A stretch of 64,000 nt of DNA, taken from positions 10,359 through 74,358 of the forward strand of contig QNFE01000001.1 in the NCBI GenBank assembly GCA_003645455.1. The letters are read 5' to 3'. This DNA is from Gammaproteobacteria bacterium. GTDB taxonomy: Bacteria > Pseudomonadota > Gammaproteobacteria > QNFE01. Shown here piece by piece: positions 1 to 62,905 of the stretch. The first letter of the stretch is position 1. Every line of letters begins with the position of its first letter. Position numbers and translations under genes: made by a program. The notes beneath the pieces were generated by a model. That model did no database searches. It saw nothing but the letters and a program-made list of their open reading frames with translations, and was not told the DNA's origin.

Positions 1-132
1 ACTGTATCTTGTAATAGAGGATAATTACTATGTTTTAAATTTCCTTGAATCTTAATAGTATCTATCGGCATCCTAGATCCCCAATAGAAACCTAACAATA
101 TGCTCGATAGAATTAGCCCTAAAACAAGATAT

Positions 133-1065
133 CTAATCATGATGTAAAGTCTGTTTTATTATTTTATACACTAATCTGTTAAAATCTATACCAGCATGAT
201 AAGCTGCCATAGGAACCAATGAATGCTCTGTCATCCCAGGTATAGTGTTCATTTCAATAAAATAAGAATGGTTGTTTTTGTCAATAATAAAATCAGCCCT
301 TCCCCAATGGCGAGCACCAATTGCTTTGAATATTTTAATGGCCTGGTTTTGCACTTGTTTTTCTATATTCTGATCTAAACCACAAGGGCACATATATTCT
401 GTCTCATCTGATTCGTATTTTGCCTCGTAATCATAAAATTCATTCTTTGCTTTTAGCTTTATAACTGGTAGTGCCGTATCATCTAAAATGGCAGCAGTGT
501 ATTCAGACCCTTTGACAAACTTCTCTGCCATAACCTGGTTTGTGTATTTTAATGCTTTGATGTAAGCATCTACCATTTGATTTTTTTCTTTTACAATGCT
601 GATGCCTATGCTGGATCCCTCTGATATGGGTTTTATAACCAATGGTAGGGATAGTTTTTCCACAATCATTAGGCTGTGTTTTTCGTTTTTAATCAACATG
701 GATTCAGGAGTAAGACAACCTATGCTTGTAGCTATAAGCTTTGTTCTGTATTTGTCCATCGCAATAGCAGAGGCTGCCATTTTTGCACCAGTAAATGGAA
801 TATCATTCCACTCTAATAAAGCTTGAATTATACCATCTTCACCATATTTTCCATGTAACATGTTAAAAACTCGATCAAATTTTTTGGTTGTTATGATTTC
901 AGGAATGTTATAACCCACATCAATTTTTTCTACATCTAATTTTAAGCTTTTTAATGCTTGATATACTGCATTGCCACTTTGCAGCGAAACCTTTCTTTCA
1001 GAGGATAATCCTCCATAAAAAACGGCTATTTTACCCAAATCTTTTATTTGTTTTTCACTTAACAT
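133..1065 (-). CDS. ddl: D-alanine--D-alanine ligase
   Basis: Has the ATP-grasp Ddl signature (KIAVFYGG...SSER...) and the right length. I took the start as the internal ATG at 1065, which is preceded by AGGGA. The longer ORF start at 1095 has no Shine-Dalgarno sequence and would overlap murB. This is the last gene of the dcw cluster in the window. Confidence 0.85.
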   Translation of the reverse strand: MLSEKQIKDLGKIAVFYGGLSSERKVSLQSGNAVYQALKSLKLDVEKIDVGYNIPEIITTKKFDRVFNMLHGKYGEDGIIQALLEWNDIPFTGAKMAASAIAMDKYRTKLIATSIGCLTPESMLIKNEKHSLMIVEKLSLPLVIKPISEGSSIGISIVKEKNQMVDAYIKALKYTNQVMAEKFVKGSEYTAAILDDTALPVIKLKAKNEFYDYEAKYESDETEYMCPCGLDQNIEKQVQNQAIKIFKAIGARHWGRADFIIDKNNHSYFIEMNTIPGMTEHSLVPMAAYHAGIDFNRLVYKIIKQTLHHD

Positions 1066-1078
1066 ATATTTATCCCTG

Positions 1079-1948
1079 TTAGCATTTTTTGCCAATAATT
1101 TTCACTTCTAATTCTAATTTAATTTTAAATTTACTATAAACTTGCTCTCTCATAAGAGATATTAAGTTTTCAACATCCTGTGCTTTGGCATTGTTTTTGT
1201 TGATGATAAAATTTGCATGTTTGTCTGAGATGCAAGCCCCACCTATACTGACACCTTTCATATTGCATTCATCTAATAATTTGGCAGCAAAATTATTTGG
1301 TGGATTTTTAAAAACACTGCCACAGGATAAAGATCCGATCGGTTGATTTTTTTTACGAATCTCTAACAACTCTTTAATTTTTATTTTTTGCTCTTTTTCA
1401 AGGATAAATTCTGCTCCGAGAAACCATTCTTGTTGTTTGAGCTTAACATTACGATAAGAGACATCAAAATCATCTTTATTTGCCCATCTTGTTTGCCCCA
1501 AATCATTTATCATTTTTAATTTTTTAACGAGCTGCCAAATTTCACAACCAAAACTGCCGGCATTCATAGCCAAAGCTCCACCTATTGAGCCTGGAATTCC
1601 CATTAAAAACTCTGCACCGTATAAATTTTTACTACTGGCAAAACGAGCAAATTTGGCACAATTTATCAGAGCATCTGCATAGATTGTGTGGTGATTTATA
1701 AGCTTTATTTCTCCTTTGTTTTTCAAAGCAATAACAACATCATCCAAGCCACCATCACGCACTAATAAATTTGATCCTTGCCCGATAACAGTTATATTTT
1801 TTTCACCATTTAATTTTTTTAAAAAAGATTTTAATTCTTGATTGTTTTCAGGTTGAAAAAAATACTCCGCAGGGCCTCCAATTCTCCAAGATGTGTGCCT
1901 GCAAAGAGGTTCTGATTTTTTTAATCCCTTGTAGTTTAAAATATTCAT
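1079..1948 (-). CDS. murB: UDP-N-acetylenolpyruvoylglucosamine reductase
   Basis: FAD-binding MurB-like sequence (HTSWRIGGPAEYF...GSNLLV...). Its start ATG at 1948-1946 overlaps the murC stop as ATGA. It lies between murC and ddl. Confidence 0.85.
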   Translation of the reverse strand: MNILNYKGLKKSEPLCRHTSWRIGGPAEYFFQPENNQELKSFLKKLNGEKNITVIGQGSNLLVRDGGLDDVVIALKNKGEIKLINHHTIYADALINCAKFARFASSKNLYGAEFLMGIPGSIGGALAMNAGSFGCEIWQLVKKLKMINDLGQTRWANKDDFDVSYRNVKLKQQEWFLGAEFILEKEQKIKIKELLEIRKKNQPIGSLSCGSVFKNPPNNFAAKLLDECNMKGVSIGGACISDKHANFIINKNNAKAQDVENLISLMREQVYSKFKIKLELEVKIIGKKC

Positions 1949-3363
1949 AGGTTTACCATTTTTTGCACCTGTACCGATATATCTCCTGCACCTATACACA
2001 ATACAACATCTTGATCTTGACATATTTTGGCAAGATTATCTCTCATGTTGCTTATATCGTCAATAAAAATAGGGTTAGTTATCCCACGAGCACGAATATT
2101 TTGACAAAGATGTCTGCCATCTGCTTGCTCTATTTTTTTCTCAGAGGCTGCATACACCTCTGATATCAATAAAATATCTACTGTTGACAAAACACTACTA
2201 AAATCATCTAATAATTCTTGTGTTCTACTATATCTATGAGGTTGAAAAACCACGACTAATCTTTTGTCAGCATAACAATCGGTGGCAGCTTTTATCGTTG
2301 CTGCTATTTCTGTGGGATGATGAGCATAATCATTGATAAGGGTAATTTTTTTATCTGGCAGTTTTACATTTCCATAGACATCAAAGCGACGATTGATGCC
2401 ATTGAAGTTACCTATGGCATTTTTAATCGTTTTTTTATCTATTTCTAATAAATCTGCCAAAGCTATGGCAGCTGTTGCATTTTGCACATTATGTTCCCCT
2501 GGCATAGGCAATTTTATGCTGCGCATAAATATCTTGTTATTTTTTTGTAAGTCAAAATAACTGCAATGATTTTTATAGCGTAAGTTTGTTATCTTATAAT
2601 CTGCATCATCGGCAAAACCATAGGTTAAAATAGGTTTTGTAATCTGGGAGATTAAATTTTTAACCACTGTATTATCAATGCATAGAATTACTGTTCCATA
2701 AAACGGCACTTGGTGTAAAAACTTGACGAATGTTTGCTTTAATTTTTCAAAACTACCACCATATGTTGACAGATGATCGGCATCAATATTAGTGACTATT
2801 GCTATCATAGGATGCAGATATAAAAATGATGCATCGGATTCATCTGCCTCGGCAATTAAATACGCACCTCGTCCTAATTTTGCATTTGAGCCTGTGTTAT
2901 TCAAAACTCCTCCTATAACATAGGTAGGATCTAAATCTGTATGATTTAAAATCTGGGCGATAAGGCTCGTTGTTGTTGTTTTGCCGTGTGTTCCTGATAC
3001 TGCAACCCCTAATGAAAACCTCATAAGCTCTGCTAACATTTGTGCTCGTGGAATTATAGGTATTTTTAATTTTTTAGCAGATATAATTTCTGGGTTTTTA
3101 TTTGTTATGGCAGATGATATCACAACAACATCAGCGGACTTTATGTTTTCTCCGCGATGTTTGTTATAAATAATCGCACCATTATTTTTAAGTTTTTCAA
3201 TGGTTTTATTGCCTTGAATATCGCTACCATAGATTTTAAATCCTAAATTTAATAAAACCTGGGCTATGCCGCTCATTCCTATGCCACCTATACCGACAAA
3301 ATAGATTGACTTCACATTAAAAGACGGCATTTTATTGATATAAAATCTATTATTGCTAATCAT
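1945..3363 (-). CDS. murC: UDP-N-acetylmuramate--L-alanine ligase
   Basis: Mur ligase motifs are present (FVGIGGIGMSG, GTHGKTTTT). It is 472 aa and sits in the dcw gene order. Confidence 0.9.
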   Translation of the reverse strand: MISNNRFYINKMPSFNVKSIYFVGIGGIGMSGIAQVLLNLGFKIYGSDIQGNKTIEKLKNNGAIIYNKHRGENIKSADVVVISSAITNKNPEIISAKKLKIPIIPRAQMLAELMRFSLGVAVSGTHGKTTTTSLIAQILNHTDLDPTYVIGGVLNNTGSNAKLGRGAYLIAEADESDASFLYLHPMIAIVTNIDADHLSTYGGSFEKLKQTFVKFLHQVPFYGTVILCIDNTVVKNLISQITKPILTYGFADDADYKITNLRYKNHCSYFDLQKNNKIFMRSIKLPMPGEHNVQNATAAIALADLLEIDKKTIKNAIGNFNGINRRFDVYGNVKLPDKKITLINDYAHHPTEIAATIKAATDCYADKRLVVVFQPHRYSRTQELLDDFSSVLSTVDILLISEVYAASEKKIEQADGRHLCQNIRARGITNPIFIDDISNMRDNLAKICQDQDVVLCIGAGDISVQVQKMVNL

Positions 3364-4439
3364 TTTAACATCTGCTCTACTATTTTATCTGTTGATGAAA
3401 AGCAAGCCATTGTATGAGCTTGGGTAGCTATCTTTAACATATTTTTCCTGTCATCAAAGAGTTTGTTTAAAATATCAATAAGATTTTCGCTATTTAATTG
3501 TGGTTGAGGCAACAAAATAGCAGCTTTTTTATTTGATAGGTATTTTGCATTATAGGTTTGGTGGTCATCTACCGCCGTAGGTAGTGGTATAAAAATAGCA
3601 ACACATCCTGCTGCTGCACACTCGGCAACACTGCCTGCCCCTGCACGACAGATAACAATGTCCGCCCAGTCTAATTGTTTGTCCATATCTGTGATAAATG
3701 GCAATATCTCAATTCTGCTGTTGTCTTGGTATTCCTGTAATACTTCTTGATATAAGTTTTCTCCTGTTTGATGTTTGATATTAAATTTATCTGTAATATC
3801 ATGGTTTTTGTTTACTAAGTTGCATAGGTTCTGATTTAAAATACGTGCCCCAAGACTTCCTCCGAACAGCAGTAAATTTAATTTTTTTGCTTGATTCAAA
3901 ATAGGTTTTTTATCTTTGAATCTTTTGACGATACTATCTCTTAAAGGGTTCCCTGTGAATATTGCTTTTTTGTTTTTAAAAGTATTGCGATAGGACTCAA
4001 AAATTACATTGGCTAACAACGATAAGCCTTTATTAGTCATTCCTGCTATGGCATTTTGCTCGTGAATATATAGTTTTTTAAAGCATAATTTTGCTGCTAT
4101 TCCACCAGGTGCTGAGACAAAACCACCCATTGCCAATACTATATTGGGTCGGTGTTTAATAATTAATTTTACGGCTTGAATAACTGCTATTTGTAACATA
4201 AATGGAGCTAATAATTTTGCTATTATTCCTTTTCGACGAATTCCTGATATATTTAAAAAATTGATTTTAAAACCATGTTGAGGAACTATTTTTGCTTCCA
4301 TTTTGTTGGTAGCCCCTACCCATTGAATCGAGCAGTTTTGTTTTTTTAAGCAGCTCGCAATTGCTATGGCAGGATAGATGTGTCCTCCGGTTCCACCTGC
4401 AAAAATCATTATTTTTTTAGAACTATTATTTGTATTCAT
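3360..4439 (-). CDS. murG: UDP-N-acetylglucosamine--N-acetylmuramyl-(pentapeptide) pyrophosphoryl-undecaprenol N-acetylglucosamine transferase
   Basis: Glycosyltransferase family 28 signature (IFAGGTGGHIYPAIAIA). It sits between ftsW and murC. Confidence 0.9.
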   Translation of the reverse strand: MNTNNSSKKIMIFAGGTGGHIYPAIAIASCLKKQNCSIQWVGATNKMEAKIVPQHGFKINFLNISGIRRKGIIAKLLAPFMLQIAVIQAVKLIIKHRPNIVLAMGGFVSAPGGIAAKLCFKKLYIHEQNAIAGMTNKGLSLLANVIFESYRNTFKNKKAIFTGNPLRDSIVKRFKDKKPILNQAKKLNLLLFGGSLGARILNQNLCNLVNKNHDITDKFNIKHQTGENLYQEVLQEYQDNSRIEILPFITDMDKQLDWADIVICRAGAGSVAECAAAGCVAIFIPLPTAVDDHQTYNAKYLSNKKAAILLPQPQLNSENLIDILNKLFDDRKNMLKIATQAHTMACFSSTDKIVEQMLK

Positions 4440-26047: not shown

Positions 26048-27409
26048 ATGAATAAAGATTTACAAATTATAATCTTAGCAGCAGGCAAGGGCACACGGAT
26101 GGTGTCCGATAAAGCTAAGGTGTTGCATAAGTTAGCAGGAAAGCCCTTATTAGGATTTGTCATTGAGGCGTCTTTGTCCCTTACAACAGAGGTAATTGTT
26201 GTCGTCGGGCACCAAGCATCAGAGGTTAAAAAATTAAATTATCCTGTTAAATGGGTCCAGCAAAAAGAACAACTTGGCACAGGACATGCAGTGCAAATGG
26301 CAAACCCTTATTTGGATGGCAACAAAAAATGTTTGATTTTATATGGCGATGTGCCACTTATCAAACCTACTACCATAAAAAAACTTGCAGATTTATCGGA
26401 TAAAAATACCATCTCACTTTTAACCTTGATTATGAAAAATCAACACGGTTATGGGCGAATTATCCGCGATGAATCAAACAACATAACCTCAATAGTGGAA
26501 GAAAAAGATGCCAGCGACCTACAAAAACAAATCAAAGAAATCAATACTGGGATTTTATCAGTTACTAATGATAATCTAATTAAATTATTACAAAATTTAA
26601 AATCAGACAACTCACAAGGGGAATATTATTTAACAGATATAATCGCCCAAGCCCATCAAAATGGTTTAAAAACAATCTCGGTGGCATCCCATTCGGTGCA
26701 TGAGGTAGCAGGGGTAAACGACAAAAAACAACTTGCTGTTTTGGAGCGAGTTTATCAACAAACCTGTGCCAAAGATTTAATGGTAGCGGGTTTAACTTTG
26801 TCCGATTATCGCCGTTTTGATTTACGAGGCACTTTAAAATTTGGCATGAATTGTATAATTGATATCAATGTTGTGTTTGAAGGTGATAATAAAATTGGTG
26901 ATAATGTTTATATTGCTCCCAACTGCATTTTAAAAAATGTTGATATAGGGGACAATGTAATCATCAAAGCCAATAGCATTTTAGAGAGTTGCAAGGTGTC
27001 AAACAATGCCACAGTTGGACCTTTTAGCAGGTTGCGCCCAGGGGCAGAGCTTAAAAATAATGCGATGGTAGGAAACTTTGTTGAGGTTAAAAAATCAATA
27101 ATAGGCGAGGACTCCAAAGCATCTCATTTGGCATATATCGGCGATGCCACCATCGGAAAAAATGTCAATGTAGGAGCAGGAGTCATAACCTGTAATTATG
27201 ATGGAGCGAATAAAAATAAAACGATTATTGAAGATGATGTTTTTGTCGGCTCTGATACCCAATTAGTGGCCCCGGTTAAACTCGGCAAAGGTTCCACCAT
27301 CGGAGCAGGCAGCACAATAACGACAAATGTCCCAAAAAAAATGTTAGTTTTATCAAGAATAAAACAAAAAGAAGTGCCGTCATGGCAAAGACCCAAAAAG
27401 AAAGAGTAA
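26048..27409 (+). CDS. glmU: Bifunctional UDP-N-acetylglucosamine pyrophosphorylase / glucosamine-1-phosphate N-acetyltransferase
   Basis: N-terminal nucleotidyltransferase motif (LAAGKGTRM) and C-terminal left-handed beta-helix hexapeptide repeats. 453 aa. Confidence 0.9.
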   Translation: MNKDLQIIILAAGKGTRMVSDKAKVLHKLAGKPLLGFVIEASLSLTTEVIVVVGHQASEVKKLNYPVKWVQQKEQLGTGHAVQMANPYLDGNKKCLILYGDVPLIKPTTIKKLADLSDKNTISLLTLIMKNQHGYGRIIRDESNNITSIVEEKDASDLQKQIKEINTGILSVTNDNLIKLLQNLKSDNSQGEYYLTDIIAQAHQNGLKTISVASHSVHEVAGVNDKKQLAVLERVYQQTCAKDLMVAGLTLSDYRRFDLRGTLKFGMNCIIDINVVFEGDNKIGDNVYIAPNCILKNVDIGDNVIIKANSILESCKVSNNATVGPFSRLRPGAELKNNAMVGNFVEVKKSIIGEDSKASHLAYIGDATIGKNVNVGAGVITCNYDGANKNKTIIEDDVFVGSDTQLVAPVKLGKGSTIGAGSTITTNVPKKMLVLSRIKQKEVPSWQRPKKKE

Positions 27410-27418
27410 AAAAATCCC

Positions 27419-27600
27419 GTCATTGCGAACGGAATTATAAAATCTCAAAAAATCCCGTCATTGCGAGCGGAACGAAGTGTAGCGAAGCAATCTCGTCAAA
27501 ACGGACGGATAATAACGAGCAAAAAGAACCCTCGTCATCGCGAACGAGCTTGCGAGTGTGGCGATCTCATAGTAGCAGACGGATAATAACAATAGAATAC
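27419..27600. repeat. Cluster of about 2.3 tandem copies of an approximately 78 bp element of the 'cccgtcattgcgagcgg...gcaatctc' type in the glmU-glmS spacer
   Basis: Direct repeats 'aaaaatcccgtcattgcgaRcgga' at 27415 and 27444. Units at 27448-27516 and 27528-27597 both end in 'gacggataataac'. Each unit carries an imperfect internal palindrome (attgcgagcg ... cgaagcaat). Confidence 0.6.
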
Positions 27601-27800
27601 AAACCCCATGAGATAACCACGGCGGATTATTATTTGTCTTGCATCGCTTTTATTCGTCCGCCTCGTTATGGCGAATTGTTATTTTTTGTTTGGTAAAAGA
27701 TATGGAATATTCAAAACCAATGGAGCAAATAAAAACAGTTCATGTGTTTGTGGTATTGTATAATAACAAACATTAAGCAGGTAAAAAAAAGGAGTAAAAT

Positions 27801-38863: not shown

Positions 38864-39961
38864 CTAATCATAGTTTTCGTCCAATAGTTTAATTAGAGTT
38901 TTTGCATCTGGTAAAATATTTTTATATTTTTTTGGCAGTTGTGAGCTGGTATTAAATGTAGCAACCCCCATAGCTTTATTAAAATCTCTGAATGCAAATT
39001 CTACGGTTTTATTTTTCTTTTCTTTGCAAAGGATTATACCTATTGATGGGTTTTCGTGTTCTTGTTTTATGTATTCGTCAAGGGCAGAGAGATAAAAATT
39101 CATCTTTCCTAAATATTCTGGTTTGAATTTTCCTGTTTTTAACTCTATGGCTACTAATGCTTGTAAATTACGATTGTAAAACAATAAATCAACAAAATAT
39201 TCTGTATCATCAACTATTATTCTGTATTGGTTGCCAATAAATGCAAAATCAGCCCCAAGTGTTGAGATAAATTTTTTAATATTTTGCACGATTTCATTTT
39301 CTAAAACTCTTTCGTTGTCTTGCTCTTCGTCTGTAAGACTTATAAAATCTAACAAATAATGGTCGTTAAAGTTTTGTAATGATTTTTGTCTTTGTTGGGT
39401 GTCACTTATTGTTTGGTTAAAATTATTTGGCAACATTCCCTGTTTTTCAAATAATTTATTTTTTAGATGCTGTTTTAAAACTCTAACAGTCCAAAACTCG
39501 TCTGTTGATTTTTTGATGTAAAACAACCTCTCGTTGATTTTTTTTGTCTTGGCGATTATCTCGCAGTGAGCGGTAAAACTTAATTTTGTAAAACAATCAA
39601 CTAATAAATTTATATCAATATCTAATTGGTCAGTCAATGACTGGCTAATTGATTTTTTGTTATTTTCGGTAATTTCATCTATAAAATATAAATTCCATTC
39701 TTCATAAAATGCTCTCATATTTTTTAAATTTGAATATGAAAATCCTCTTAAACCACTCAATTCAATTTGTAAATCGTCTGATAGTCTTTTGATGGTTTGA
39801 TTGCCCCATTTTTCAGTTGCAACTTTTTTGGATATTATTTTTCCTACATTAAAATATAAGTTTAATAACTCTTTGTTAGCAACTTTGGCAACTTCATAAC
39901 GACTTTTTATTATTTGTTGCTTTAAATTTTTAAGAATCTTGATATAATTGTCAATAATCAT
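38864..39961 (-). CDS. YhcG/DUF1016 family PDDEXK nuclease
   Basis: N-terminal YhcG-type region (LSGLRGFSYSNLKNMRAFY). C-terminal PD-(D/E)xK core (DLLFYNRNLQALVAIELKTGKFKPEYLGKMNFYLSALDE). Confidence 0.7.
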   Translation of the reverse strand: MIIDNYIKILKNLKQQIIKSRYEVAKVANKELLNLYFNVGKIISKKVATEKWGNQTIKRLSDDLQIELSGLRGFSYSNLKNMRAFYEEWNLYFIDEITENNKKSISQSLTDQLDIDINLLVDCFTKLSFTAHCEIIAKTKKINERLFYIKKSTDEFWTVRVLKQHLKNKLFEKQGMLPNNFNQTISDTQQRQKSLQNFNDHYLLDFISLTDEEQDNERVLENEIVQNIKKFISTLGADFAFIGNQYRIIVDDTEYFVDLLFYNRNLQALVAIELKTGKFKPEYLGKMNFYLSALDEYIKQEHENPSIGIILCKEKKNKTVEFAFRDFNKAMGVATFNTSSQLPKKYKNILPDAKTLIKLLDENYD

Positions 39962-39966
39962 TATGT

Positions 39967-40176
39967 TTATCCCTGTTTTAATTTTATAAAAATATTGACA
40001 CTAACCCTTTGCAACATCTTAAACATGCCATCACCATCAGGACACTTTTCCGCTATGTTGTGACTCTCATGCAAATCCAAAATATAAATTTTATCAAAAC
40101 CTGCTGCCAACCCAATTTTATTAGGAAATTGCAAAGCAAACAAAAAAGGACGAGATATTTTATAAAGTATTTTCAT
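39967..40176 (-). pseudogene. Mosaic gene relic: pyrD 5' end fused to a pyrD internal piece and a piece of the Type IIG RM gene interior
   Basis: The 69 aa ORF reads MKILYKISRPFLFAL (pyrD aa 1-15), then QFPNKIGLAAGFDK (pyrD aa about 48-61), then IYILDLH...CPDGDG...VSVNIFIK (RM enzyme aa about 600-645). At DNA level it is a diverged copy of 38762-38805, then 38620-38664, then 41690-41812. Confidence 0.7.
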
Positions 40177-40217: not shown

Positions 40218-40318
40218 AATAATTCTATAAAATCCGTCACTGCGAGACAAAGCCCTGTCAGTCTCGGATACTACCAAGAGATTGCCGCGGTCGCAAGCTC
40301 GCTGCAATGACGGGTTTT
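40218..40318. repeat. About 100 bp element with terminal inverted repeats (aaatccgtcactgcgag ... ctcgctgcaatgacgggttt), related to the glmU-glmS spacer repeats
   Basis: Shares the 'ccgtcaYtgc...gcgagcttgcga...gcaatctc' core with the 27419-27600 elements. It sits immediately 3' of the RM gene stop. Confidence 0.55.
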
Positions 40319-40319
40319 T

Positions 40320-43300
40320 TTATTTATCCTCAATAATTTTTATTTTATCAATCTGTTGCATTATTTTATTTGTTTCAAAAAGCACATAAATAATTTTTTG
40401 ATAGTGAGTTATGTCTGTGTTTGATAACTCGTAATCTTGGTCTTTGCGAGATTTGAGCCATTTTTGTAAAGGCTGATAACCGCCGATAAAAAAATTCCAA
40501 GCGATAGATGGCACATTATCAAAATATTGATTTTTATTTATCCACACTTTTCCTGTGCCATCTTTTTCTTTGCTTTCTATAAAAGTATGTTTTTCTACTG
40601 TCGCATCTCCATCTCCTTTAAATGGACTTATTATATCCGTTAATTCTATATTTTCCATTAAATGCAACTTGCGAAGTGTTGCACCTTTTTCAATACATTG
40701 CCAAAATGTTTTTTTATCCGCAGGATATGGCACACGAGGGAAATCAATTTTTAAAAACTCTTGGTATTTCTTGCGGTATTTTGGTGAATGCAACACAGCA
40801 TAAATATAATCCAAAATATCAATCGGCGATAGGTAATTTTGAATTTTTTCTGCTTTAAATTCTAATTTTAAATTGTCTGCTATTTTTTCAACAATTTTCA
40901 TATCCAAGTTAGGTTTTCTACTCTTTTCTGTGAACATTCCATCTGATTCTTTGTCTGGGTAAAGATATAACGGACAAACATAATCTCCTCCTTGCATGCC
41001 AGGGCGAGACCAACTTCTAAAATCAATTATATTTGCAGAAACAAAACAAGGTGAAGCATTTTTCTCTACAAAACCTCTTTTAAAAACCAATCCAATATTT
41101 TCAGTTTTTAGAAAATGAGACATAACCTCGCCTCGTGGCATACACAAAAAACCTTTTGATTTTTTGGAATAATAAGTCCATCTATTATCAAATGGACGAT
41201 ATGATATTTTTGTTATTTTTTTAAAATCAACTCCTGTTTTAATTAAATCTTTTTTTGCATATGAAATTTTCCAGTCACGAACATCCTTGCCTAATTTAAA
41301 ATGCTCTCTTGCCTCCTCGTCATCTAATTTTAAAAATTTTTGAATAGTTTTTTTAACCTCATCTGCTGTTTTATGAATAGTAAAGTTATCACGAGCTGTT
41401 ACTATGCCAACAGAATTGATAGGAAATAAATCTGTCAAAACAAAACCTTTATCATATTCGGCTTGGGCTTGGTAATCTTTGGGTTTAAAAAAATAATAGG
41501 GTTCTTGTGGTTTTAATTTTTCAAATTGAATACTTGTCAAATCATTTTCTAATAAAAAACCATATTTTGCTTGGCGTTTTCCGTAGAGATCAAAATGAAA
41601 AACTTTGGCTAATTTATTTGATAAGTTTTTGTTTTTTGCTGACAAGGGGACATGTCCCCTTGCTAAACCATGTCGTTTTTTCTTGATGAAAATATTGATA
41701 CTGACCCCTTGCATAATATCAAATACATTTTGATCTTTTGTGCCATCAGGGCAGACTTCCTTTTTTTTACTGTTGCCGTGTAAATCTATGATATAAATTT
41801 TATCATAGGTTTTTAAGAGATTGTGCCTCATGCCACGAAAGGTGGGGTTATCTAAAAAGCCGTGAGGGTTGATGAAGGCTAAAATTCCTTCGCCATTTTT
41901 TTCTATTAAATTTTGTGAATATTTAATAAACTTTACATAATCATCGTTAAGCCATTTTGAATTTTTTTCTTGTAATTTGCCACCTGTTGGCTCTTTTTTA
42001 TAATCATCTAATAGGTTTTCTATCCATTTGCCTTTGTTTGATGATTCACCGGCATAAGGCGGATTGCCTAAGACAATCATAACAGGGGTGTCTTTTTTAA
42101 CTCTATCGGCGGCACGAGACTCATCAGATAACCATTTGGCTCCAAATAATGACAAACCAGCATATTCGTGTTCTGGCTCTAAACTATTCGTCAAAAATAC
42201 ATTAAAACGATTATTGTTTTTGTCGTCTTTTTGATAACCTGTTGTTTTTAATAACATTTGTAATTTAAGATGACACATAGCATAGGGGGCAAGCAGTAAT
42301 TCAAAGCCGTTTAATCTGGGAATTAAATCTTCATCAACATATTTATGCCAACCGCCGGAGTTCGTGGTTTTTATGATATCGGCGATATATTTTATCACCT
42401 CACATAAAAAAGTGCCTGTGCCGCAGGCAGGGTCTAAGATTTGCACTTTATGAACTTGTTTGGTTGTTTTGGTTTGAGTTTTAGGGTCGTCAAATTTTAT
42501 ATTAACCATGCTTGTGTCACAAATCCCATCGCTTATTTTAAAGTCTTTTTTTAAAACATCATCACAAGCTTTGATGATAAATTTAACAACAGGTTCCGGG
42601 GTATAATAAACTCCACGAGATTTTTTTAATTGGGGGTTATAATTATGCAAAAATGTTTCATAAAAATGAATCATCGGATCTTGTGTGGCAGTTTTTTTGC
42701 CAAAGTCTTGTAGGATATTAGATAAATTAGCATGACGGAAAATATCAACCAAAGCATCAACAATCCAGATAATTTCTGTGTCTAAATTTGCACCGCCAAC
42801 ATATTCAAACAAATGTCGTAAAAATGGATTAGTGCGAGGCATAAGCTCCATTGCCTCATATCTTGAAAATGATTGCGGTGTTTTGTCGTGTAATCTGGCA
42901 GCAAACAAACCATAAGTTATAGTCTGGGAATAAATATCAGCAAAACTTGCCTCATCTAAGTCTTTTATTAGTATTTTTTGAAAACTAGTAAATTGCTCAT
43001 AAAGATTAGTGTTTTTGCAATCATCGCCGCAGGTTAAAGCTTTGTAAATTGCATCTTTTAATGTTTGGGCTTTGAGTGCCATAAGCGAGGCTAATTTTTC
43101 GGCTGTGTTTATTGTTGTGCCGTTATAAGCACAAAAGTTTTTTAAAAGATTTATAAAAGGTGCAAAGTTATCATTGATGGGTTTTATTTTATTGTTGGTT
43201 ATCGTAGCAATTTGAATAGTTTCAAGTTTTTTGATTTTATTGTCATCAGTTTTTTGATAGAATCTAAATTCAATATAATTAGTTGTCATTACATTGTCAA

Positions 43301-43610
43301 GTCGGCTGACATATCGCAATAATTGATTGTTGTTGTCTCCTTTTTCTAAGCCATCTAATAGGTTGTTTTTTAAATCTTTGGCTTCAATATAAGCGGTTGG
43401 AACTTTGTTTTTATTCTGCACTAAAAAATCAGGAGCACCACATTTTTGTTGTTTTGGTTCGTTGGTTATTGTAATATCTTTGATAAGGTTTTCTATAAGA
43501 TTTTTAAAAGCTGGACGATAGCTGTGTTCGGTAGCCTTGCCACTTTGGAAAAGATCTGTTACATTTTTTAAATATTCTTTGATATATGTTATATGCTTAG
43601 GTGGCTTCAT
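40320..43610 (-). CDS. Single-chain restriction-modification enzyme of Type IIG/IIL (MmeI-like) architecture: N-terminal PD-(D/E)xK nuclease, gamma-class N6-adenine methyltransferase, C-terminal target-recognition domain
   Basis: 1096 aa. PD...EAK nuclease motif near aa 60 (GAPDF...YIEAKD). Methyltransferase motifs YYTPEP, DPACGTGTFL (motif I) and GNPPY (motif IV). C-terminal TRD-type signature 'YIYAVLHSPKYRKKYQEFLKIDFPRVP'. No helicase domain, so not Type I, III or ISP. Confidence 0.7.
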   Translation of the reverse strand: MKPPKHITYIKEYLKNVTDLFQSGKATEHSYRPAFKNLIENLIKDITITNEPKQQKCGAPDFLVQNKNKVPTAYIEAKDLKNNLLDGLEKGDNNNQLLRYVSRLDNVMTTNYIEFRFYQKTDDNKIKKLETIQIATITNNKIKPINDNFAPFINLLKNFCAYNGTTINTAEKLASLMALKAQTLKDAIYKALTCGDDCKNTNLYEQFTSFQKILIKDLDEASFADIYSQTITYGLFAARLHDKTPQSFSRYEAMELMPRTNPFLRHLFEYVGGANLDTEIIWIVDALVDIFRHANLSNILQDFGKKTATQDPMIHFYETFLHNYNPQLKKSRGVYYTPEPVVKFIIKACDDVLKKDFKISDGICDTSMVNIKFDDPKTQTKTTKQVHKVQILDPACGTGTFLCEVIKYIADIIKTTNSGGWHKYVDEDLIPRLNGFELLLAPYAMCHLKLQMLLKTTGYQKDDKNNNRFNVFLTNSLEPEHEYAGLSLFGAKWLSDESRAADRVKKDTPVMIVLGNPPYAGESSNKGKWIENLLDDYKKEPTGGKLQEKNSKWLNDDYVKFIKYSQNLIEKNGEGILAFINPHGFLDNPTFRGMRHNLLKTYDKIYIIDLHGNSKKKEVCPDGTKDQNVFDIMQGVSINIFIKKKRHGLARGHVPLSAKNKNLSNKLAKVFHFDLYGKRQAKYGFLLENDLTSIQFEKLKPQEPYYFFKPKDYQAQAEYDKGFVLTDLFPINSVGIVTARDNFTIHKTADEVKKTIQKFLKLDDEEAREHFKLGKDVRDWKISYAKKDLIKTGVDFKKITKISYRPFDNRWTYYSKKSKGFLCMPRGEVMSHFLKTENIGLVFKRGFVEKNASPCFVSANIIDFRSWSRPGMQGGDYVCPLYLYPDKESDGMFTEKSRKPNLDMKIVEKIADNLKLEFKAEKIQNYLSPIDILDYIYAVLHSPKYRKKYQEFLKIDFPRVPYPADKKTFWQCIEKGATLRKLHLMENIELTDIISPFKGDGDATVEKHTFIESKEKDGTGKVWINKNQYFDNVPSIAWNFFIGGYQPLQKWLKSRKDQDYELSNTDITHYQKIIYVLFETNKIMQQIDKIKIIEDK
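41643..41662. repeat. 20 bp perfect palindrome 'caaggggacatgtccccttg' inserted in-frame in the RM gene
   Basis: Encodes ...RH-GLARGHVPLS-AKNK... A GC-rich island in an AT-rich gene. It is a variant of the 22 bp palindrome at 44389 and 50525. Confidence 0.6.
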
Positions 43611-43999
43611 ATTTGCTGTTGTTGTAAGTCTGACACAATTTCGGCAATTTTAATAAAATCGTTATCATTGTGAACCAAGATTAAATCATTTTCAATGGCA
43701 CAACAGGCGATAAGGCAATCTATTGTGGAGCGAATTGTTATACCTTTTTGGCGGCATTTCATATAAATGTTGGCAGAGTTTTCATAACTTTTTAAATTAT
43801 CTTGCAATGAATAAAATTTTTGTTGATTTAGTATGTTTTTTAATTTGTTAAAAAGTGATGTGTTTTTTGCACCCTGTAAAACTTCCATATAAATTACACC
43901 AGTTATTGCAGTTTGTTTTTTTGCATATAATGTTTTTATAAAATCAGTAGAATTATTATTAAATAAATCAATCCAAATAGAAGTATCAATTAAATACAT
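43607..43999 (-). CDS. vapC: PIN-domain toxin (VapC family)
   Basis: N-terminal 'MYLIDTSIWIDLF' PIN signature with conserved acidic residues. 130 aa. Its stop overlaps the RM start codon as ATGA. Confidence 0.75.
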   Translation of the reverse strand: MYLIDTSIWIDLFNNNSTDFIKTLYAKKQTAITGVIYMEVLQGAKNTSLFNKLKNILNQQKFYSLQDNLKSYENSANIYMKCRQKGITIRSTIDCLIACCAIENDLILVHNDNDFIKIAEIVSDLQQQQI

Positions 44000-44012
44000 T
44001 TATGCAAAGGTT

Positions 44013-44267
44013 TTATTTATATTTTGGCAGAGAGCGGGAGCGCATTGCTTTATAATCGTAGCCTTCAAAAAATGGACTTTCTCCATCTAATGATTTTATG
44101 AGCCAATCTAAACCATTGTTTTTGTGATTTTCAATATATTCGTGCAAAGCTTTGTCAATTATCGCTCTTTTGCTTTTAAGTTTGCTTAATTTTAAAGCTT
44201 GTTGCACTATATTTTCATCCAAAACAACATTTGTGCGGTGTAGGGTTGGTAACATTTTAACTCTCAT
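44013..44267 (-). CDS. vapB: VapB-type antitoxin (ribbon-helix-helix, Rv0623-like)
   Basis: 'TNVVLDENIVQQALKLS...KRAIIDKALHEYIE' resembles RHH antitoxins. It lies 13 bp upstream of vapC. Confidence 0.6.
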   Translation of the reverse strand: MRVKMLPTLHRTNVVLDENIVQQALKLSKLKSKRAIIDKALHEYIENHKNNGLDWLIKSLDGESPFFEGYDYKAMRSRSLPKYK

Positions 44268-44388
44268 GTATTGAAAAATGTGTATAATAACATAAATTAT
44301 GTGTATATGTTATTTTTTAATGTTATAAATTCTCATTATATTTTGGATAATATTTATTAAACTGGCAACAACAAACATTTCTGTATTG

Positions 44389-44410
44389 ACAAGGGGGCAT
44401 GCCCCCTTGT
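44389..44410. repeat. 22 bp perfect palindrome 'acaagggggcatgcccccttgt' (intergenic, upstream of vapB)
   Basis: Perfect palindrome centred on GCATGC. An identical 22-mer occurs at 50525-50546. Confidence 0.65.
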
Positions 44411-44543
44411 TAGTTCTTGTGTCCGATTGAAGACATGTATTTTTAACTGCCGAGTTAATATATAACTCAATCATAAAGCATTCTCATCTAATGTTTTATT
44501 TTGCTGTTGCTTGGTTTGATATTTTAAAATAATATATTCCAAA

Positions 44544-44933
44544 TTATCCCATATCAAGTATAATTTTAAAATTTTGTTGTTGCCATAACTGCTTGGCGTA
44601 ACCTTTTTTAAAAGCGATCAGTTTTTCTTTTGCATTACGAGAGTGGGCATAATTAGGAAAGGTGCTGTTGTCAAGTCCTTGTCCATATTTTTGATTCAAA
44701 CGAGAGGAATAATCAAAGTAAGTTAACCAATTTGCAGGTTTTATCATTGTTTCAACGGCTATTATTATATTATCTTTTGTGTCAATTTTTATGTTTTTAT
44801 CGGTTATTTTGTTGGTATTTTGTGTCATTCCACCCAAACAATATTTGTTAAAAACTAATTTAATGCAGTCATCAGCAATTAAAGAATTGTGAAAATTTAA
44901 TAACAATAAAAATATTAGAATTTTTAATTTCAT
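44544..44933 (-). CDS. Hypothetical secreted protein
   Basis: 129 aa with an N-terminal signal peptide. No recognisable motifs. Confidence 0.35.
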   Translation of the reverse strand: MKLKILIFLLLLNFHNSLIADDCIKLVFNKYCLGGMTQNTNKITDKNIKIDTKDNIIIAVETMIKPANWLTYFDYSSRLNQKYGQGLDNSTFPNYAHSRNAKEKLIAFKKGYAKQLWQQQNFKIILDMG

Positions 44934-48760: not shown

Positions 48761-50524
48761 ATGGCAAATTCAACAAAATTAAAAACTCACAAATTTGATG
48801 CGATTATTATCGGTGCCGGAGGAGCGGGTTTAAAAGCCGCTTTGCAAATTGGCAAATCAGGGGCAAAGGTTGCTGTTATCTCAAAAGTATATCCCACTCG
48901 CTCTCATACTGTATCCGCCCAAGGTGGCATAAATGCGGCTTTGGCAAATGTTAGTGAGGATAACTGGCACTGGCATATGTATGACACCATCAAAGGATCA
49001 GACTGGCTCGCCGACCAAGATGCCGTGGAATATATGTGTCAAAAAGCACGCGAGACGGTGATAGACTTAGAACATAACGGTGTGCCATTTTCAAGGCTTG
49101 ATGATGGCAAAATATATCAGCGAAAATTTGGCGGACAAAGCCAGAATTTTGGCAAAACCCAAGCGACACGAACCTGTGCTGCCGCCGACCGGACAGGACA
49201 TGCAATTTTGCATTCTTTATATCAACAAAACATAAGATATAAAACTCACTTTTTTGATGAATATTTTTGCATTGATTTATTAAAAGATAAAACAGGGGCG
49301 ATAGCAGGGGTTATGGTGTTATCAATGGCAACAGGCGAACCTTTGATAATTCAAGCAAAAGCGACAATAATTGCCACAGGAGGTGCAGGGCAAATTTTCA
49401 ACACCACGACAAATGCCACAGTTAATACAGGGGACGGATTAGCCATGGCATTGCGTGCGGATATTGCTTTGGAGGATATGGAATTTTTTCAATTTCATCC
49501 CACCGGTATCGCAGGCAAGGGGATGTTATTATCAGAGGGCGCAAGGGGTGAGGGCGGATATTTATTAAATGGCAAAGGCGAGAGATTTATGGAAAAATAT
49601 GCGCCGAATGTCAAAGATCTCGCCAGCCGTGATGTTGTTAGTCGCTCGATATATTTGGAAGTCAAAGAGGGTAGAGGCTGTGGTAAAAACAAGGATCATG
49701 TTTTGTTGCAGGTTCATCATATAGGAGCAGACAAGGTTAAAAAAAGATTGCCAGCCATCCGTGATTTAGCGTTGAGTTTTACCGGGCTTGATATGGCATA
49801 TGAGGCAATTCCGGTTTATCCGACCGCTCACTACACAATGGGTGGCATTCCTACTAATAAATATGGCGAGGTAGTGGATGACAAGCACCAAAGCATAACA
49901 GGCATATATGCAATCGGCGAGTGTGCTTGTGTTTCAGTCCATGGAGCAAATCGTCTGGGGGGCAACTCATTATTAGATATAGTTGTATTTGGCAAAATAG
50001 CAGGTGAGCATTGTATAGAATTTTTAAAAACAAAACCACAACACAAAAAATTAGACGATAAGATATTACAAAAAATTGAAAAAAGGTTTTGGAGTTGGGA
50101 TAATAATGATGGCATCGAAGATGTGTATCAACTAAAAACCGAATTAAAAGAGACAATGGATAAATATTGTAGTGTTTTTCGCACCCAGAAAATTCTGGAT
50201 GAAGGTGTAGAAGAGGTTAAAAAAATAAGCGAGAGATTTAAAAATGTCAAATTATCTGATAGATCAAAAACTTTTAATATTGCCAGAATTGATATTTTTG
50301 AAACTGAAAATTTAATTCAAAATGCCTTGGCGACAATCATATCTGCCGCCGCACGCCATGAAAGCCGTGGTGCTCACAGTCGCGTAGATTATCCAGAACG
50401 AGATGATAAAAATTGGTTAAAACATAGCCTATTTTATCTCAAAGATTTATCCTTAAAATACAAAGATGTCAATATGAAACCTGTAAGTGTTGATAGTATT
50501 CCACCAAAAAAGAGGGTGTATTAA
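48761..50524 (+). CDS. sdhA: Succinate dehydrogenase flavoprotein subunit
   Basis: FAD-binding N-terminus ([12 protein letters not shown]) and the conserved covalent-flavin histidine context ([10 protein letters not shown]). 587 aa. Confidence 0.92.
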
Positions 50525-50546
50525 ACAAGGGGGCATGCCCCCTTGT
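50525..50546. repeat. 22 bp perfect palindrome 'acaagggggcatgcccccttgt' in the sdhA-sdhB spacer
   Basis: Identical to the 22-mer at 44389-44410. It begins 1 bp after the sdhA stop. Confidence 0.65.
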
Positions 50547-52376: not shown

Positions 52377-52863
52377 TCAAGTTGATAAATATACATACAG
52401 AGTAATATGGTCGGAGGAAGATCAGGAGCATATAGGGCTTTGTGCTGAGTTCCCAAGCCTAAGTTGGTTGTCCGAGTCACCACAAAAAGCATTAGAAGGC
52501 ATCACAGATGTTGTAAAAAAGTGCATAGAAGATATGCAACAACACAACGAAAGCATTCCGCAACCAATCGCATACAAAAAATATAGTGGAAAATTTAATG
52601 TGAGACCTTTGCATAATTCAAGTGCTGTTTAGAGAGGACAGAAAATAGTGCATTTTTATAGCAAAAATGAGGAATATGGTAATTCCCTTTGACGAATTTT
52701 TGCTATGAAAAGGTGCATTTTATGTGTTTTATAAATTGTGCTTGAATTATGCAAAGGTCTCAATGTAAGTGTGCCACCAGAGGTTCACAGAAGCCTTTGT
52801 ATCCAGGCCGCTGAATCAGGAGTAAATTTTAACTCAATGGCGAGCGCTAAATTATCCCTGTAA
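52369..52863 (+). pseudogene. hicB: HicB-family antitoxin split by a 160 bp MITE-like insertion
   Basis: The N-terminal HicB domain (YTYRVIWSEEDQEHIGLCAEFPSLSWL) ends 8 codons into the MITE's left end, with the premature stop at 52630-52632. The C-terminal RHH region (PEVHRSLCIQAAESGVNFNSMASAKLSL, stop at 52861) resumes in frame immediately after the insertion. Confidence 0.7.
52602..52761. mobile_element. MITE-like element (160 bp) with 21 bp terminal inverted repeats and a 5 bp target-site duplication
   Basis: Terminal inverted repeats 'gagacctttgcataattcaag' and 'cttgaattatgcaaaggtctc'. The flanking 'aatgt' is duplicated (52597-52601 and 52762-52766). A nested internal palindrome is present (atagcaaaaat...atttttgctat). 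No transposase gene is in the window. Confidence 0.7.
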
Positions 52864-62722: not shown

Positions 62723-62792
62723 GAGACCTTTGCATAAATCAAATGCTGTTTAGAGAATGCAGAAAATAGTGCTTGATTTATGCAAAGGTCTC
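62723..62792. mobile_element. Second, internally deleted copy (70 bp) of the MITE-like element, in the rlmH-ppsA spacer
   Basis: Terminal inverted repeats 'gagacctttgcataaatcaa' and 'ttgatttatgcaaaggtctc'. The flanking 5 bp 'attta' is duplicated (62718-62722 and 62793-62797). The core 'gctgtttagagaatgcagaaaatagtgc' is shared with the copy at 52602-52761. Confidence 0.65.
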
Positions 62793-62905
62793 ATTTAGAT
62801 ATTTCATACAAAAAATATTTTATAAGATAATTTGTTTTGTTCTTTTGTGCTTGATTTATTTAACTATTTTTATTACAATACTTATTTTTTTACATAAGTT
62901 GAATT

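Follow-up and report, generated by a model that had tools for sequence, protein, structure and literature searches.

A dispersed hairpin palindrome lies in frame within a Type IIG/IIL restriction-modification gene of a gammaproteobacterial genome

How does a perfect, GC-rich palindrome come to lie inside the reading frame of an apparently intact restriction-modification (RM) gene in an AT-rich genome? The question is raised by a 64,000-nt stretch of a Gammaproteobacteria bacterium assembly (GCA_003645455.1, contig QNFE01000001.1, positions 10,359 to 74,358), which was analysed as a whole and is called the window here. A first-pass annotation of the window had noticed the palindrome, likened it to Rickettsia palindromic elements (RPEs) and to in-frame insertions of repetitive extragenic palindromes (REPs), and hinted at a recombination hotspot. 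We find that its main interpretation was right; in-frame REP-type insertions as such were already known. The palindrome is an in-frame insertion relative to homologues of its host gene and belongs to a dispersed family, and the idea of a GC-rich palindromic mini-element in an RM linker is thereby upheld from two sides, by alignment and by the family. We consider it likely that this is a tolerated REP-like insertion in a permissive loop of an intact RM gene, and infer that it was mobilised by an HUH nuclease. The features needed first are these:

40320 to 43610, minus strand: host gene, an apparently intact single-chain Type IIG/IIL RM enzyme of 1096 aa, identified by Pfam, PADLOC, a PDB match and motif columns.
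41643 to 41662: copy 1, the perfect 20-bp palindrome CAAGGGGACATGTCCCCTTG (A/T centre variant), read in frame on the minus strand as A-R-G-H-V-P-L.
41631 to 41675, minus strand: extra segment of ~45 nt or 15 codons, about R646-N660, RHGLARGHVPLSAKN, with borders good to ~2 codons in the homologue alignment.

The host enzyme and its extended loop

As judged from sequence alone, the host protein has the three parts that define the Type IIG/IIL class: an N-terminal PD..ExK nuclease, a gamma-class N6-adenine methyltransferase with an NPPY motif, and a C-terminal target recognition domain (TRD), here of the Type_ISP_C family. PADLOC identifies it as REase_MTase_IIG over its full length (1087 bits), and its top PDB match is 7lo5 (DrdV, a Type IIL enzyme; E = 4.5e-34), followed by LlaBIII and LlaGI. 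Since the domains are present and D60, E75, K77 and N515-P-P-Y518 all fall in invariant columns of a 43-homologue alignment, the gene looks intact. An identical protein is recorded only once, in the metagenome-assembled genome (MAG) named Gammaproteobacteria bacterium, and the next best homologues have only ~55% identity. Pfam matches to N6_Mtase/Eco57I/MmeI_Mtase cover residues 310-612 and Type_ISP_C begins at 727 and ends at 1085, which places the palindrome between the methyltransferase and the TRD.

The palindrome itself, caaggggacatgtccccttg, occupies exactly 41643-41662, and its symmetry stops there (left neighbour a, right neighbour c). It runs from codon 650 position 2 through codon 656 position 3, where the minus-strand codons ggt tta gca agg gga cat gtc ccc ttg tca give G648-L-A-R-G-H-V-P-L-S657; the location in the RM gene, the perfect symmetry and the in-frame reading GLARGHVPLS given in the first-pass annotation are all borne out by sequence and translation. 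Its G+C content is 60%, against 30-37% in the window (32% for the window as a whole), and as RNA it would fold into a hairpin of -15.2 kcal/mol (z = -2.7) whose 9-bp stem carries a CAUG loop. A target-site duplication was considered and rejected: the flanking AAAAAAC repeats have a spacing of 44 nt, at odds with an in-frame insert of 45 nt, and we treat the pair as a probable coincidence of a Lys-rich stretch.

An alignment of the 120 best homologues, the query included (MAFFT), defines the insertion. Between the strands ..VSINIFIK and KVFHFDL.. the query has a loop of 27 aa (K643-K669) against 12 aa in 113 of the 120, with the consensus KTGKKKANELGK, which leaves 15 extra residues; the alignment with DrdV likewise has a gap over the extra segment. 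The palindrome-encoded peptide occurs in none of the 119 other homologues, that is, in one of 120, the query itself. Residues are indeed extra at this point, as had been suspected, but they number ~15 and not ~10, and the search for the same residues in relatives left the reading as an insertion standing. An AlphaFold2 model made with the alignment (mean confidence, pLDDT, 72.5) has strands at 636-642 and 668-673 and values below 50 for residues 646-663, which probably form an exposed, flexible loop. The earlier suggestion of a linker that tolerates insertion agrees with the placement between the two domains and with this low-confidence loop.

Extra residues in the same loop were seen in just two other homologues, P0099 and P0041, and both have GC-rich hairpin DNA of another family there, CCCCTCCnnnGGAGGGG (loop hairpins CCCCTCCACTGGAGGGG, and GTCAGACgaaGTCTGAC plus CCCCTCCAAAGGAGGGG). 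This second stop-free hairpin family, CCCCTCC-nnn-GGAGGGG, has entered homologues of the window enzyme without breaking the frame (L116:2156; L117:4934 and 5717; L182:3586 and 4894; L225:9013 and 9286), at one site in the loop that is extended in the window. In L182 and L225 it accompanies the first family, and it recurs elsewhere in the genes of P0099 and P0041 and at other loci. With two hairpin families found in it, the A-rich loop appears to be a permissive site that was hit at least twice independently. On present sequence evidence, the enzyme with its 15-residue longer surface loop is most likely still active.

A fragment of another RM gene lies a short distance away and bears on the suggestion of a recombination hotspot:

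39967 to 40176, minus strand: relic ORF (open reading frame) in which the 5' part of pyrD is joined to a diverged piece of a second RM gene (~aa 601-645), with an un-inserted K-T-G loop.

In its pyrD part, a 99-nt internal deletion between GTTTGC direct repeats has brought codons 1-14 next to codons 48-63, and the junction of pyrD with the RM fragment lies at an 8-nt direct repeat, TGATAAAA. At the DNA level the relic is homologous to the intact gene as far as ..AATATTTTTATAAAATTAAAAC, i.e., up to the insertion point, and continues with AGGGATAAAC, the canonical K-T-G loop; RM homology ends ~15 nt past the insertion point, at the start codon of the YhcG gene. No trace of the palindrome was seen in the relic ORF, whose loop AAAACAGGGAT reads K-T-G, and the relic can therefore serve as a diverged "empty site" comparator. 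It points to an earlier RM gene at the locus that may since have been replaced or deleted.

The first-pass annotation had proposed that the palindrome coincides with the breakpoint of this relic. The near coincidence is real, but there is no evidence that the palindrome caused it. Were the palindrome to mark or create a hotspot for the shuffling or deletion of RM domains, the relic would stem from a break there, and relic homology does stop ~15 nt or less from the insertion point; fragility is known for long palindromes, and the palindromes of other RM genes lie at domain borders. We nevertheless think it quite improbable. The relic's loop is canonical and free of the palindrome, its other junctions lie at the 8-nt and 6-nt direct repeats just described, and no RM chimeras with a joint at the palindrome were seen. 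At 20 bp a palindrome is short for fragility of the SbcCD type, and the loop forms the natural boundary of a stretch that is poorly conserved and permissive, where a near coincidence is not unlikely.

A dispersed hairpin family

Three window sites match the palindrome with at most three mismatches (41643 and two of CAAGGGGGCATGCCCCCTTG, at 44390-44409 and 50526-50545), and the same search of 100 dinucleotide-preserving shuffles found none. The looser pattern AAGGGGN6CCCCTT finds the identical three sites, where 0.06 would be expected, and a scan of the window for perfect inverted repeats found almost no GC-rich hairpins besides these copies. The two further copies are:

44389 to 44410: copy 2, ACAAGGGGGCATGCCCCCTTGT, G/C centre, intergenic, between a 129-aa ORF and vapB (upstream of vapB).
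50525 to 50546: copy 3, ACAAGGGGGCATGCCCCCTTGT, 1 nt past the stop codon of sdhA (48761-50524) and before sdhB (50597).

Copies 2 and 3 share 27 nt of identity in inverted orientation, and a single compensatory pair, G..C for A..T, separates them from copy 1. As expected of REPs, which are hairpin repeats of 20-40 nt, the three are perfect palindromes of 20-22 bp with RNA hairpins of -15 to -20 kcal/mol (-20.3 kcal/mol, z = -4.4, for copy 2; -18.2 kcal/mol, z = -4.2, for copy 3). With intrinsic terminators and mRNA-stabilising stem-loops they have in common a GC-rich stem with a tetraloop, and copies 2 and 3 lie just outside ORFs; copy 2, weakly on the plus strand, is the sole copy flagged as a terminator. 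Copy 1 was rejected as an intrinsic terminator: it lies mid-gene, has no U-tract and was flagged on neither strand by the consensus scan.

Searches for the pattern CAAGGGGNCATGNCCCCTTG in species-representative genomes and, with a TGA flank, in metagenomes gave at least 115 and at least 119 loci, respectively; by our own arithmetic, chance alone would give ~9 copies in 596 Gb. Among the matches listed, the host taxa are chiefly Bacteroidota, together with Betaproteobacteria, groups of the candidate phyla radiation (CPR), KSB1, Chlorobiota and others. An adapter or linker artefact is excluded by in-frame copies in long ORFs, by the many independent projects and by decay with compensatory changes. 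A literature search for this palindrome sequence found no paper.

Conservation extends past the core to (A/G)A before it and T(C/T) after it, giving a unit of ~22-26 bp that can be written as the hairpin (G/A)ACAAGGGGNCATGNCCCCTTGT(C/T). The flanks of 608 oriented copies share no sequence beyond 2-3 nt, and those of copy 1 match no other copy. The centre pair N/N' is complementary in 264 of 277 distinct copies (95%), and decayed copies are still perfect palindromes through compensatory changes (CAATGGGACATGTCCCATTG; ACAAGGGAGCATGCTCCCTTGT and AAAGGAGCATGCTCCTTT). The family thus evolves under hairpin constraint, and its symmetry may be kept up partly by template-switch correction. More than half of the copies (161/277, 58%) fall within open frames of 150 aa or more, and for 121 of them the frame reaches 300 aa or more. 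Every one of the three reading frames is used, as RGH(A/V/D)PL, KG(A/T)CPL and QG.M.PC, and single ORFs can hold copies in different frames (L005, L009, L020 and L216). The T/A variant is never found in frame 2, where it would read TGA (0/17), against 44/97 for the G/C variant there. Members borne by ORFs are selected to keep the frame open. These three observations, namely the use of three frames, the avoidance of TGA in frame 2 and the copies of differing frame within one ORF, mark a DNA-level element that is translated through and filtered for open frames.

They also dispose of the possibility that the conserved feature is a peptide motif, RGH(A/V/D)PL, to which the DNA palindrome is incidental. 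RGH.PL is the commonest frame, with 81 of the 161 ORF copies, as such a motif would predict; we nonetheless give this explanation next to no credence, and the frame and covariation data already refute it, for non-coding copies exist, three frames are used, sometimes in one ORF, and in 95% of copies the second position of the A/V/D codon and the synonymous third position of the Gly codon covary.

Another possibility is that copy 1 arose locally, by a template switch or fold-back error, and is not a dispersed copy at all. Nested and half copies elsewhere speak for it: in L219 (~aa 390-405 of the ORF at 1-3567, minus strand), GGGGGCATTCAACAAGGGGGCATGCCCCCTTGTTGAATGCCCCC is a 44-bp perfect palindrome in which one copy is nested in the centre of another, and in L074 a half copy abuts a full one. 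Such arrangements suggest insertion into, or possibly fold-back growth at, the hairpin centre, and the GACATGG 19 nt upstream of copy 1 could be the vestige of a half copy. Even so, we regard a local origin as very unlikely, and the family evidence in effect refutes it. The same 18 fixed bases stand at two more window sites and at hundreds of unrelated loci, where recurrence de novo is not credible, and template switching explains the upkeep of symmetry only.

Some copies of the family are arranged in arrays. Tandem 57-nt units (19 aa, GEASETRGHVPLSGTSLR) that contain the palindrome are found in L004:6183-6373 and L063:16-149 (MAG274, Bacteroidota), near fragments of genes for Type IIG enzymes that contain an HUH domain (described below), and the same linker holds a 105-nt repeat in L081 and an 87-nt repeat in L066. 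An 18-kb contig classed as viral (L184, the same as L243/L244 and L240; IMGVR_UViG_3300022552_000049, 3300010330_000057) has an rve integrase. It carries ~20 copies of the A/T variant (~1 per kb), including tandem arrays with periods of 33 and 36 nt in ORFs of 455 and 565 aa.

The genes that host the palindrome are diverse, and Pfam searches of 37 large host ORFs identified many unrelated proteins. Outside RM systems they include alpha-2-macroglobulin, a PPDK-like protein, histidine kinases, a MurF-Alr fusion, a Mur ligase, LigA, TonB receptors, proteins of the type IX secretion system (T9SS) and a fragment of DNA gyrase/topoisomerase IV subunit A (DNA_topoisoIV). Genes for RM enzymes and methylases are strongly over-represented among the hosts. 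Among the matches listed, one Type IIG family (HSDR_N / MmeI_hel / Eco57I / TaqI_C) accounts for 25 of the 115 genome loci and for 12 metagenome host ORFs, and the palindrome also lies in a true MmeI homologue, in a full Type ISP enzyme, in enzymes related to that of the window and in three N6_N4 methylases.

This excess, which takes in Type ISP (Type_ISP_C) and N6_N4_Mtase genes as well as the Type IIG family, might mean that the hairpin is a selected cis-acting element of RM genes: an mRNA structure, an RNase site, a DNA cruciform or a self-recognition site. The copies at domain junctions and the palindromy kept by compensatory changes would fit. We consider such a role unlikely, and no more favour its particular forms, in which the hairpin would slow translation, be cut by RNase or tune the expression or timing of a bifunctional enzyme. 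The same palindrome lies between genes and in housekeeping genes (murF-alr, DNA_topoisoIV, ligA, and those for TonB receptors and histidine kinases), close homologues differ in the position and number of copies, many copies are decayed, and there are palindrome-free homologues at every site. The other 119 window-enzyme homologues all lack the palindrome. Template-switch correction of quasi-palindromes can, moreover, keep palindromes perfect without selection.

A RAYT-like domain inside Type IIG enzymes

The Type IIG family that most often hosts the palindrome (HSDR_N nuclease, MmeI_hel, Eco57I/N6_Mtase, TaqI_C) has a complete Y1-HUH domain in frame inside its methyltransferase, between ..NIKCGNSLI and GGFDVVIGNPPY. 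It is found in L020:1646-5332 and ~37 other loci (e.g., L009, L019, L067, L113, L159, L216 and L219). The domain has the motifs AWHITTATHNSR..QRM, YNICGDHMHILLVCE, IVGKIKS.TAR, SLWTQKFG and N.I.YI.NNRIKH.LP, and both the HUH motif (DHMH) and the Tyr motif (YIxNNRxKH) are conserved. Its best NCBIfam match is the REP-associated tyrosine transposase (RAYT), at E = 1.4e-13 and 51 bits (the curated cut-off is 80), and IS200 scores 26.8 bits; the PADLOC profile matches the L020-type family in three stretches, the best of which ends at residue 522, ahead of the Y1 match. A literature search found no paper that links Y1_Tnp/HUH with Type IIG enzymes or describes an HUH domain inside one.

Palindromes cluster around this domain. 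In the Type IIG-HUH enzymes they have hot spots before KRKKDGVFYTP, just before the HUH domain, in the TAR..N-LWTQKF loop and just after the domain, where they are perfect or decayed (TMGHVPL, TREHAPLS, KGINPLV, KGLQPLV), and palindrome-free homologues have short linkers at each hot spot. A search seeded with the HUH domain, after removal of the palindrome words, retrieved 50 short Y1_Tnp proteins, some of them named RayT by JGI and one of them (P0125) a stand-alone gene of 200 aa; 18 of the 50 carry exact palindrome peptides, and most of the others carry decayed ones. An exhaustive HMMER search with the palindrome-free seed gave 332 cluster representatives. Among the best 150 of these, 29 have exact palindrome peptides and 74 have exact or decayed ones; 46 have a length of 550 aa or more, and in most of the 46 the domain lies far from the N-terminus (in many at about residue 550-750), consistent with embedding. 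Palindromes are thus frequent in the HUH clade, against the query alone among 120 homologues of the window enzyme, and so the association with the HUH clade is specific.

How the insert came to the window enzyme may be pictured as follows. A REP-type hairpin repeat of ~22-26 bp, with ~25 nt of accompanying sequence (45 nt together), would have entered an A-rich stretch that codes for a putative beta-hairpin turn between the methyltransferase core and the TRD of a DrdV/MmeI-like enzyme. Because the insert has no stop codon in frame and is a multiple of three, it is simply translated, adding ~15 residues to an exposed loop. For the enzyme it would be a passenger with no functional module and probably neutral. 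Since the palindrome family is so tightly tied to the RAYT-like Y1-HUH domain, the likeliest engine is an HUH nuclease acting in trans, which would cut and join the single-stranded hairpin and so spread it. The repeat may have reached this genome by horizontal transfer or local spread.

The nearest known system is that of REPs and RAYTs. In RAYT subclass 2.4, REPs lie in frame in the RAYT gene between HuH and Y, occasionally also in unrelated genes, and are tolerated in loops (Quentin et al. 2018, PMC6006769). The family described here resembles these in its short, GC-rich, dispersed hairpins, in a Y1-HUH domain with HUH, W and YIxNN(P/R) motifs, and in having in-frame copies inside the HUH gene as in PMC6006769. 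It differs in that one core is common to many phyla, and in that 58% of the sampled public copies lie inside ORFs, whereas REPs are extragenic by name (copies 2 and 3 of the window are extragenic). The HUH domain here is of the form DHMH / WT / YIxNNR and often embedded in a Type IIG RM enzyme. Copy number may differ too: there are three copies and no RAYT gene in the ~81 kb of contig read, and up to ~1 copy per kb elsewhere. To our knowledge, the dispersal of REP-type repeats by a RAYT has never been directly demonstrated.

The likeness to RPEs that the first-pass annotation drew holds as an analogy but not in detail. According to PMC10969869 (reviewing Ogata et al. 2000), RPEs are palindromic, lie in frame in unrelated genes and are compatible with the fold of the host protein, and the window likewise has an in-frame palindromic repeat in a coding gene of an AT-rich genome. 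However, RPE units are ~100-150 bp long, encode a conserved peptide of their own (~30-50 aa) and are known from Rickettsia only, whereas the repeat here is ~22 bp, is used in three frames and sits in a gammaproteobacterial MAG. A further comparison is with the small dispersed repeats (SDRs) of heterocystous cyanobacteria, which have other sequences and belong to another phylum. SDRs, described by Elhai and colleagues in 2008 (Genome Res 18:1484, a paper cited in PMC3116915 and PMC2884548), are reportedly ~21-27 nt long, seemingly mobile, both intergenic and intragenic, and nested, as is the 44-bp copy in L219. We know of no description of a link between SDRs and RM genes or an HUH domain.

Several observations weigh against a REP-like passenger moved by an HUH nuclease. 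The host excess of RM and methylase genes from several unrelated families is unaccounted for by a purely passive-passenger model. No RAYT-like or IS200 gene was found in the window (by tblastn) and no RAYT-like gene in the ~81 kb of contig read, nor was a RAYT-like gene found on the 18-kb IMG/VR contig with its ~20 copies; in other genomes a RAYT-like domain was seen with the palindrome before, inside and after it. The palindrome is perfect and has no GT(A/G)G (or CGTC) head, in which it is unlike REPs. All three copies lie inside 9 kb of the ~81 kb read, unlike a typical high-copy REP landscape, in which copies usually exceed 100, and ~17 kb of further contig sequence has no more family palindromes or GC-rich family hairpins. 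Only ~22 of the 45 extra nt belong to the repeat family, the remaining ~23 nt having no match in other copies, and there is no high-identity empty-site allele, the nearest homologue being ~55% identical.

A tolerated, HUH-mobilised insertion remains our favoured explanation. It can be taken further. The AAGGGG...CCCCTT palindromes might be the cognate hairpins of the RM-embedded HUH domain, which would be bracketed and invaded by repeats of its own in a hitherto undescribed arrangement, with RM-HUH enzymes or their stand-alone relatives seeding stop-free hairpins in genes and between them across phyla, preferentially in RM and methylase genes, and the window insert being one such footprint. 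We put this forward tentatively, as possible and rather doubtful at present.

Local context and implications

Copy 2 is the only window copy with a larger conserved unit around it:

44355 to 44461, plus strand: 107-nt conserved element centred on copy 2, sharply bordered, its terminal inverted repeats imperfect (TATTAAACTGGCA / TGCCGAGTTAATA).

It aligns with the 18-kb IMG/VR contig and with seven low-GC metagenome loci that have unrelated flanks, and its consensus fold has the central hairpin and a small 3' hairpin (TTAACTgccgAGTTAA). No Rfam family was found for either the palindrome or the 107-nt element, whether over the whole window at the gathering threshold or over 44200-44600 at E up to 10. 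The element could be a MITE (a miniature inverted-repeat transposable element) or a small RNA gene; its ends resemble terminal inverted repeats, no duplication is definable around it, and copy 1 is without a clear target-site duplication. A separate MITE-like element of ~165 nt lies at 52602-52765, with perfect 21-bp terminal inverted repeats GAGACCTTTGCATAATTCAAG; it has a partial second copy at 62723-62793 and a copy of 93% identity in metagenome locus L168.

Upstream of the host gene, a vapB-vapC pair (VapB_antitoxin, PIN; 43607-44267) overlaps the RM start codon by 4 nt, so that the toxin-antitoxin pair appears to be transcribed together with the Type IIG enzyme. On the downstream side is a YhcG/DUF1016 PD-(D/E)xK gene (38864-39961), the candidate defence gene PDC-S02 of PADLOC, and together the vapBC, RM and YhcG/DUF1016 genes form a small defence island adjoining pyrD. 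Inverted-repeat elements of the form CCCGTCATTGCGAG...CTCGC.GCAATGACGGG are found at 27405-27700 (a cluster before the ORF at 27801) and at 40232-40316, directly 3' of the RM stop codon. Elements of the CCCGTCATTGCGAG type and the 107-nt element bracket the vapBC-RM module (40320-44267), and similar copies occur in L174 and L184/L243. By inspection, the repeats bracketing vapBC-RM lack the R''/R' core sites (RYYYAAC / GTTRRRY) of integron attC sites and were rejected as such.

For the host gene the effect is modest, an RM enzyme with a loop extended by 15 residues. There is also a lesson for annotation: where an AT-rich gene has a short insert rich in G, P, H and R, its DNA should be examined for palindromes before the insert is called a protein feature. 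We suggest that the part worth following is the family and its tie to RM enzymes with a RAYT-like domain. A hairpin of ~22 bp behaves like selfish DNA and yet persists in coding sequence in any frame; it is common to distant phyla, clusters in RM genes and is tied to a RAYT-like domain that itself lies within a Type IIG enzyme. If the link with the HUH domain is causal, it would provide a testable system for the dispersal of REP-type repeats and for the remodelling of protein loops by repeats, and it would bear on why a defence enzyme should hold a nuclease/ligase domain for single-stranded DNA.

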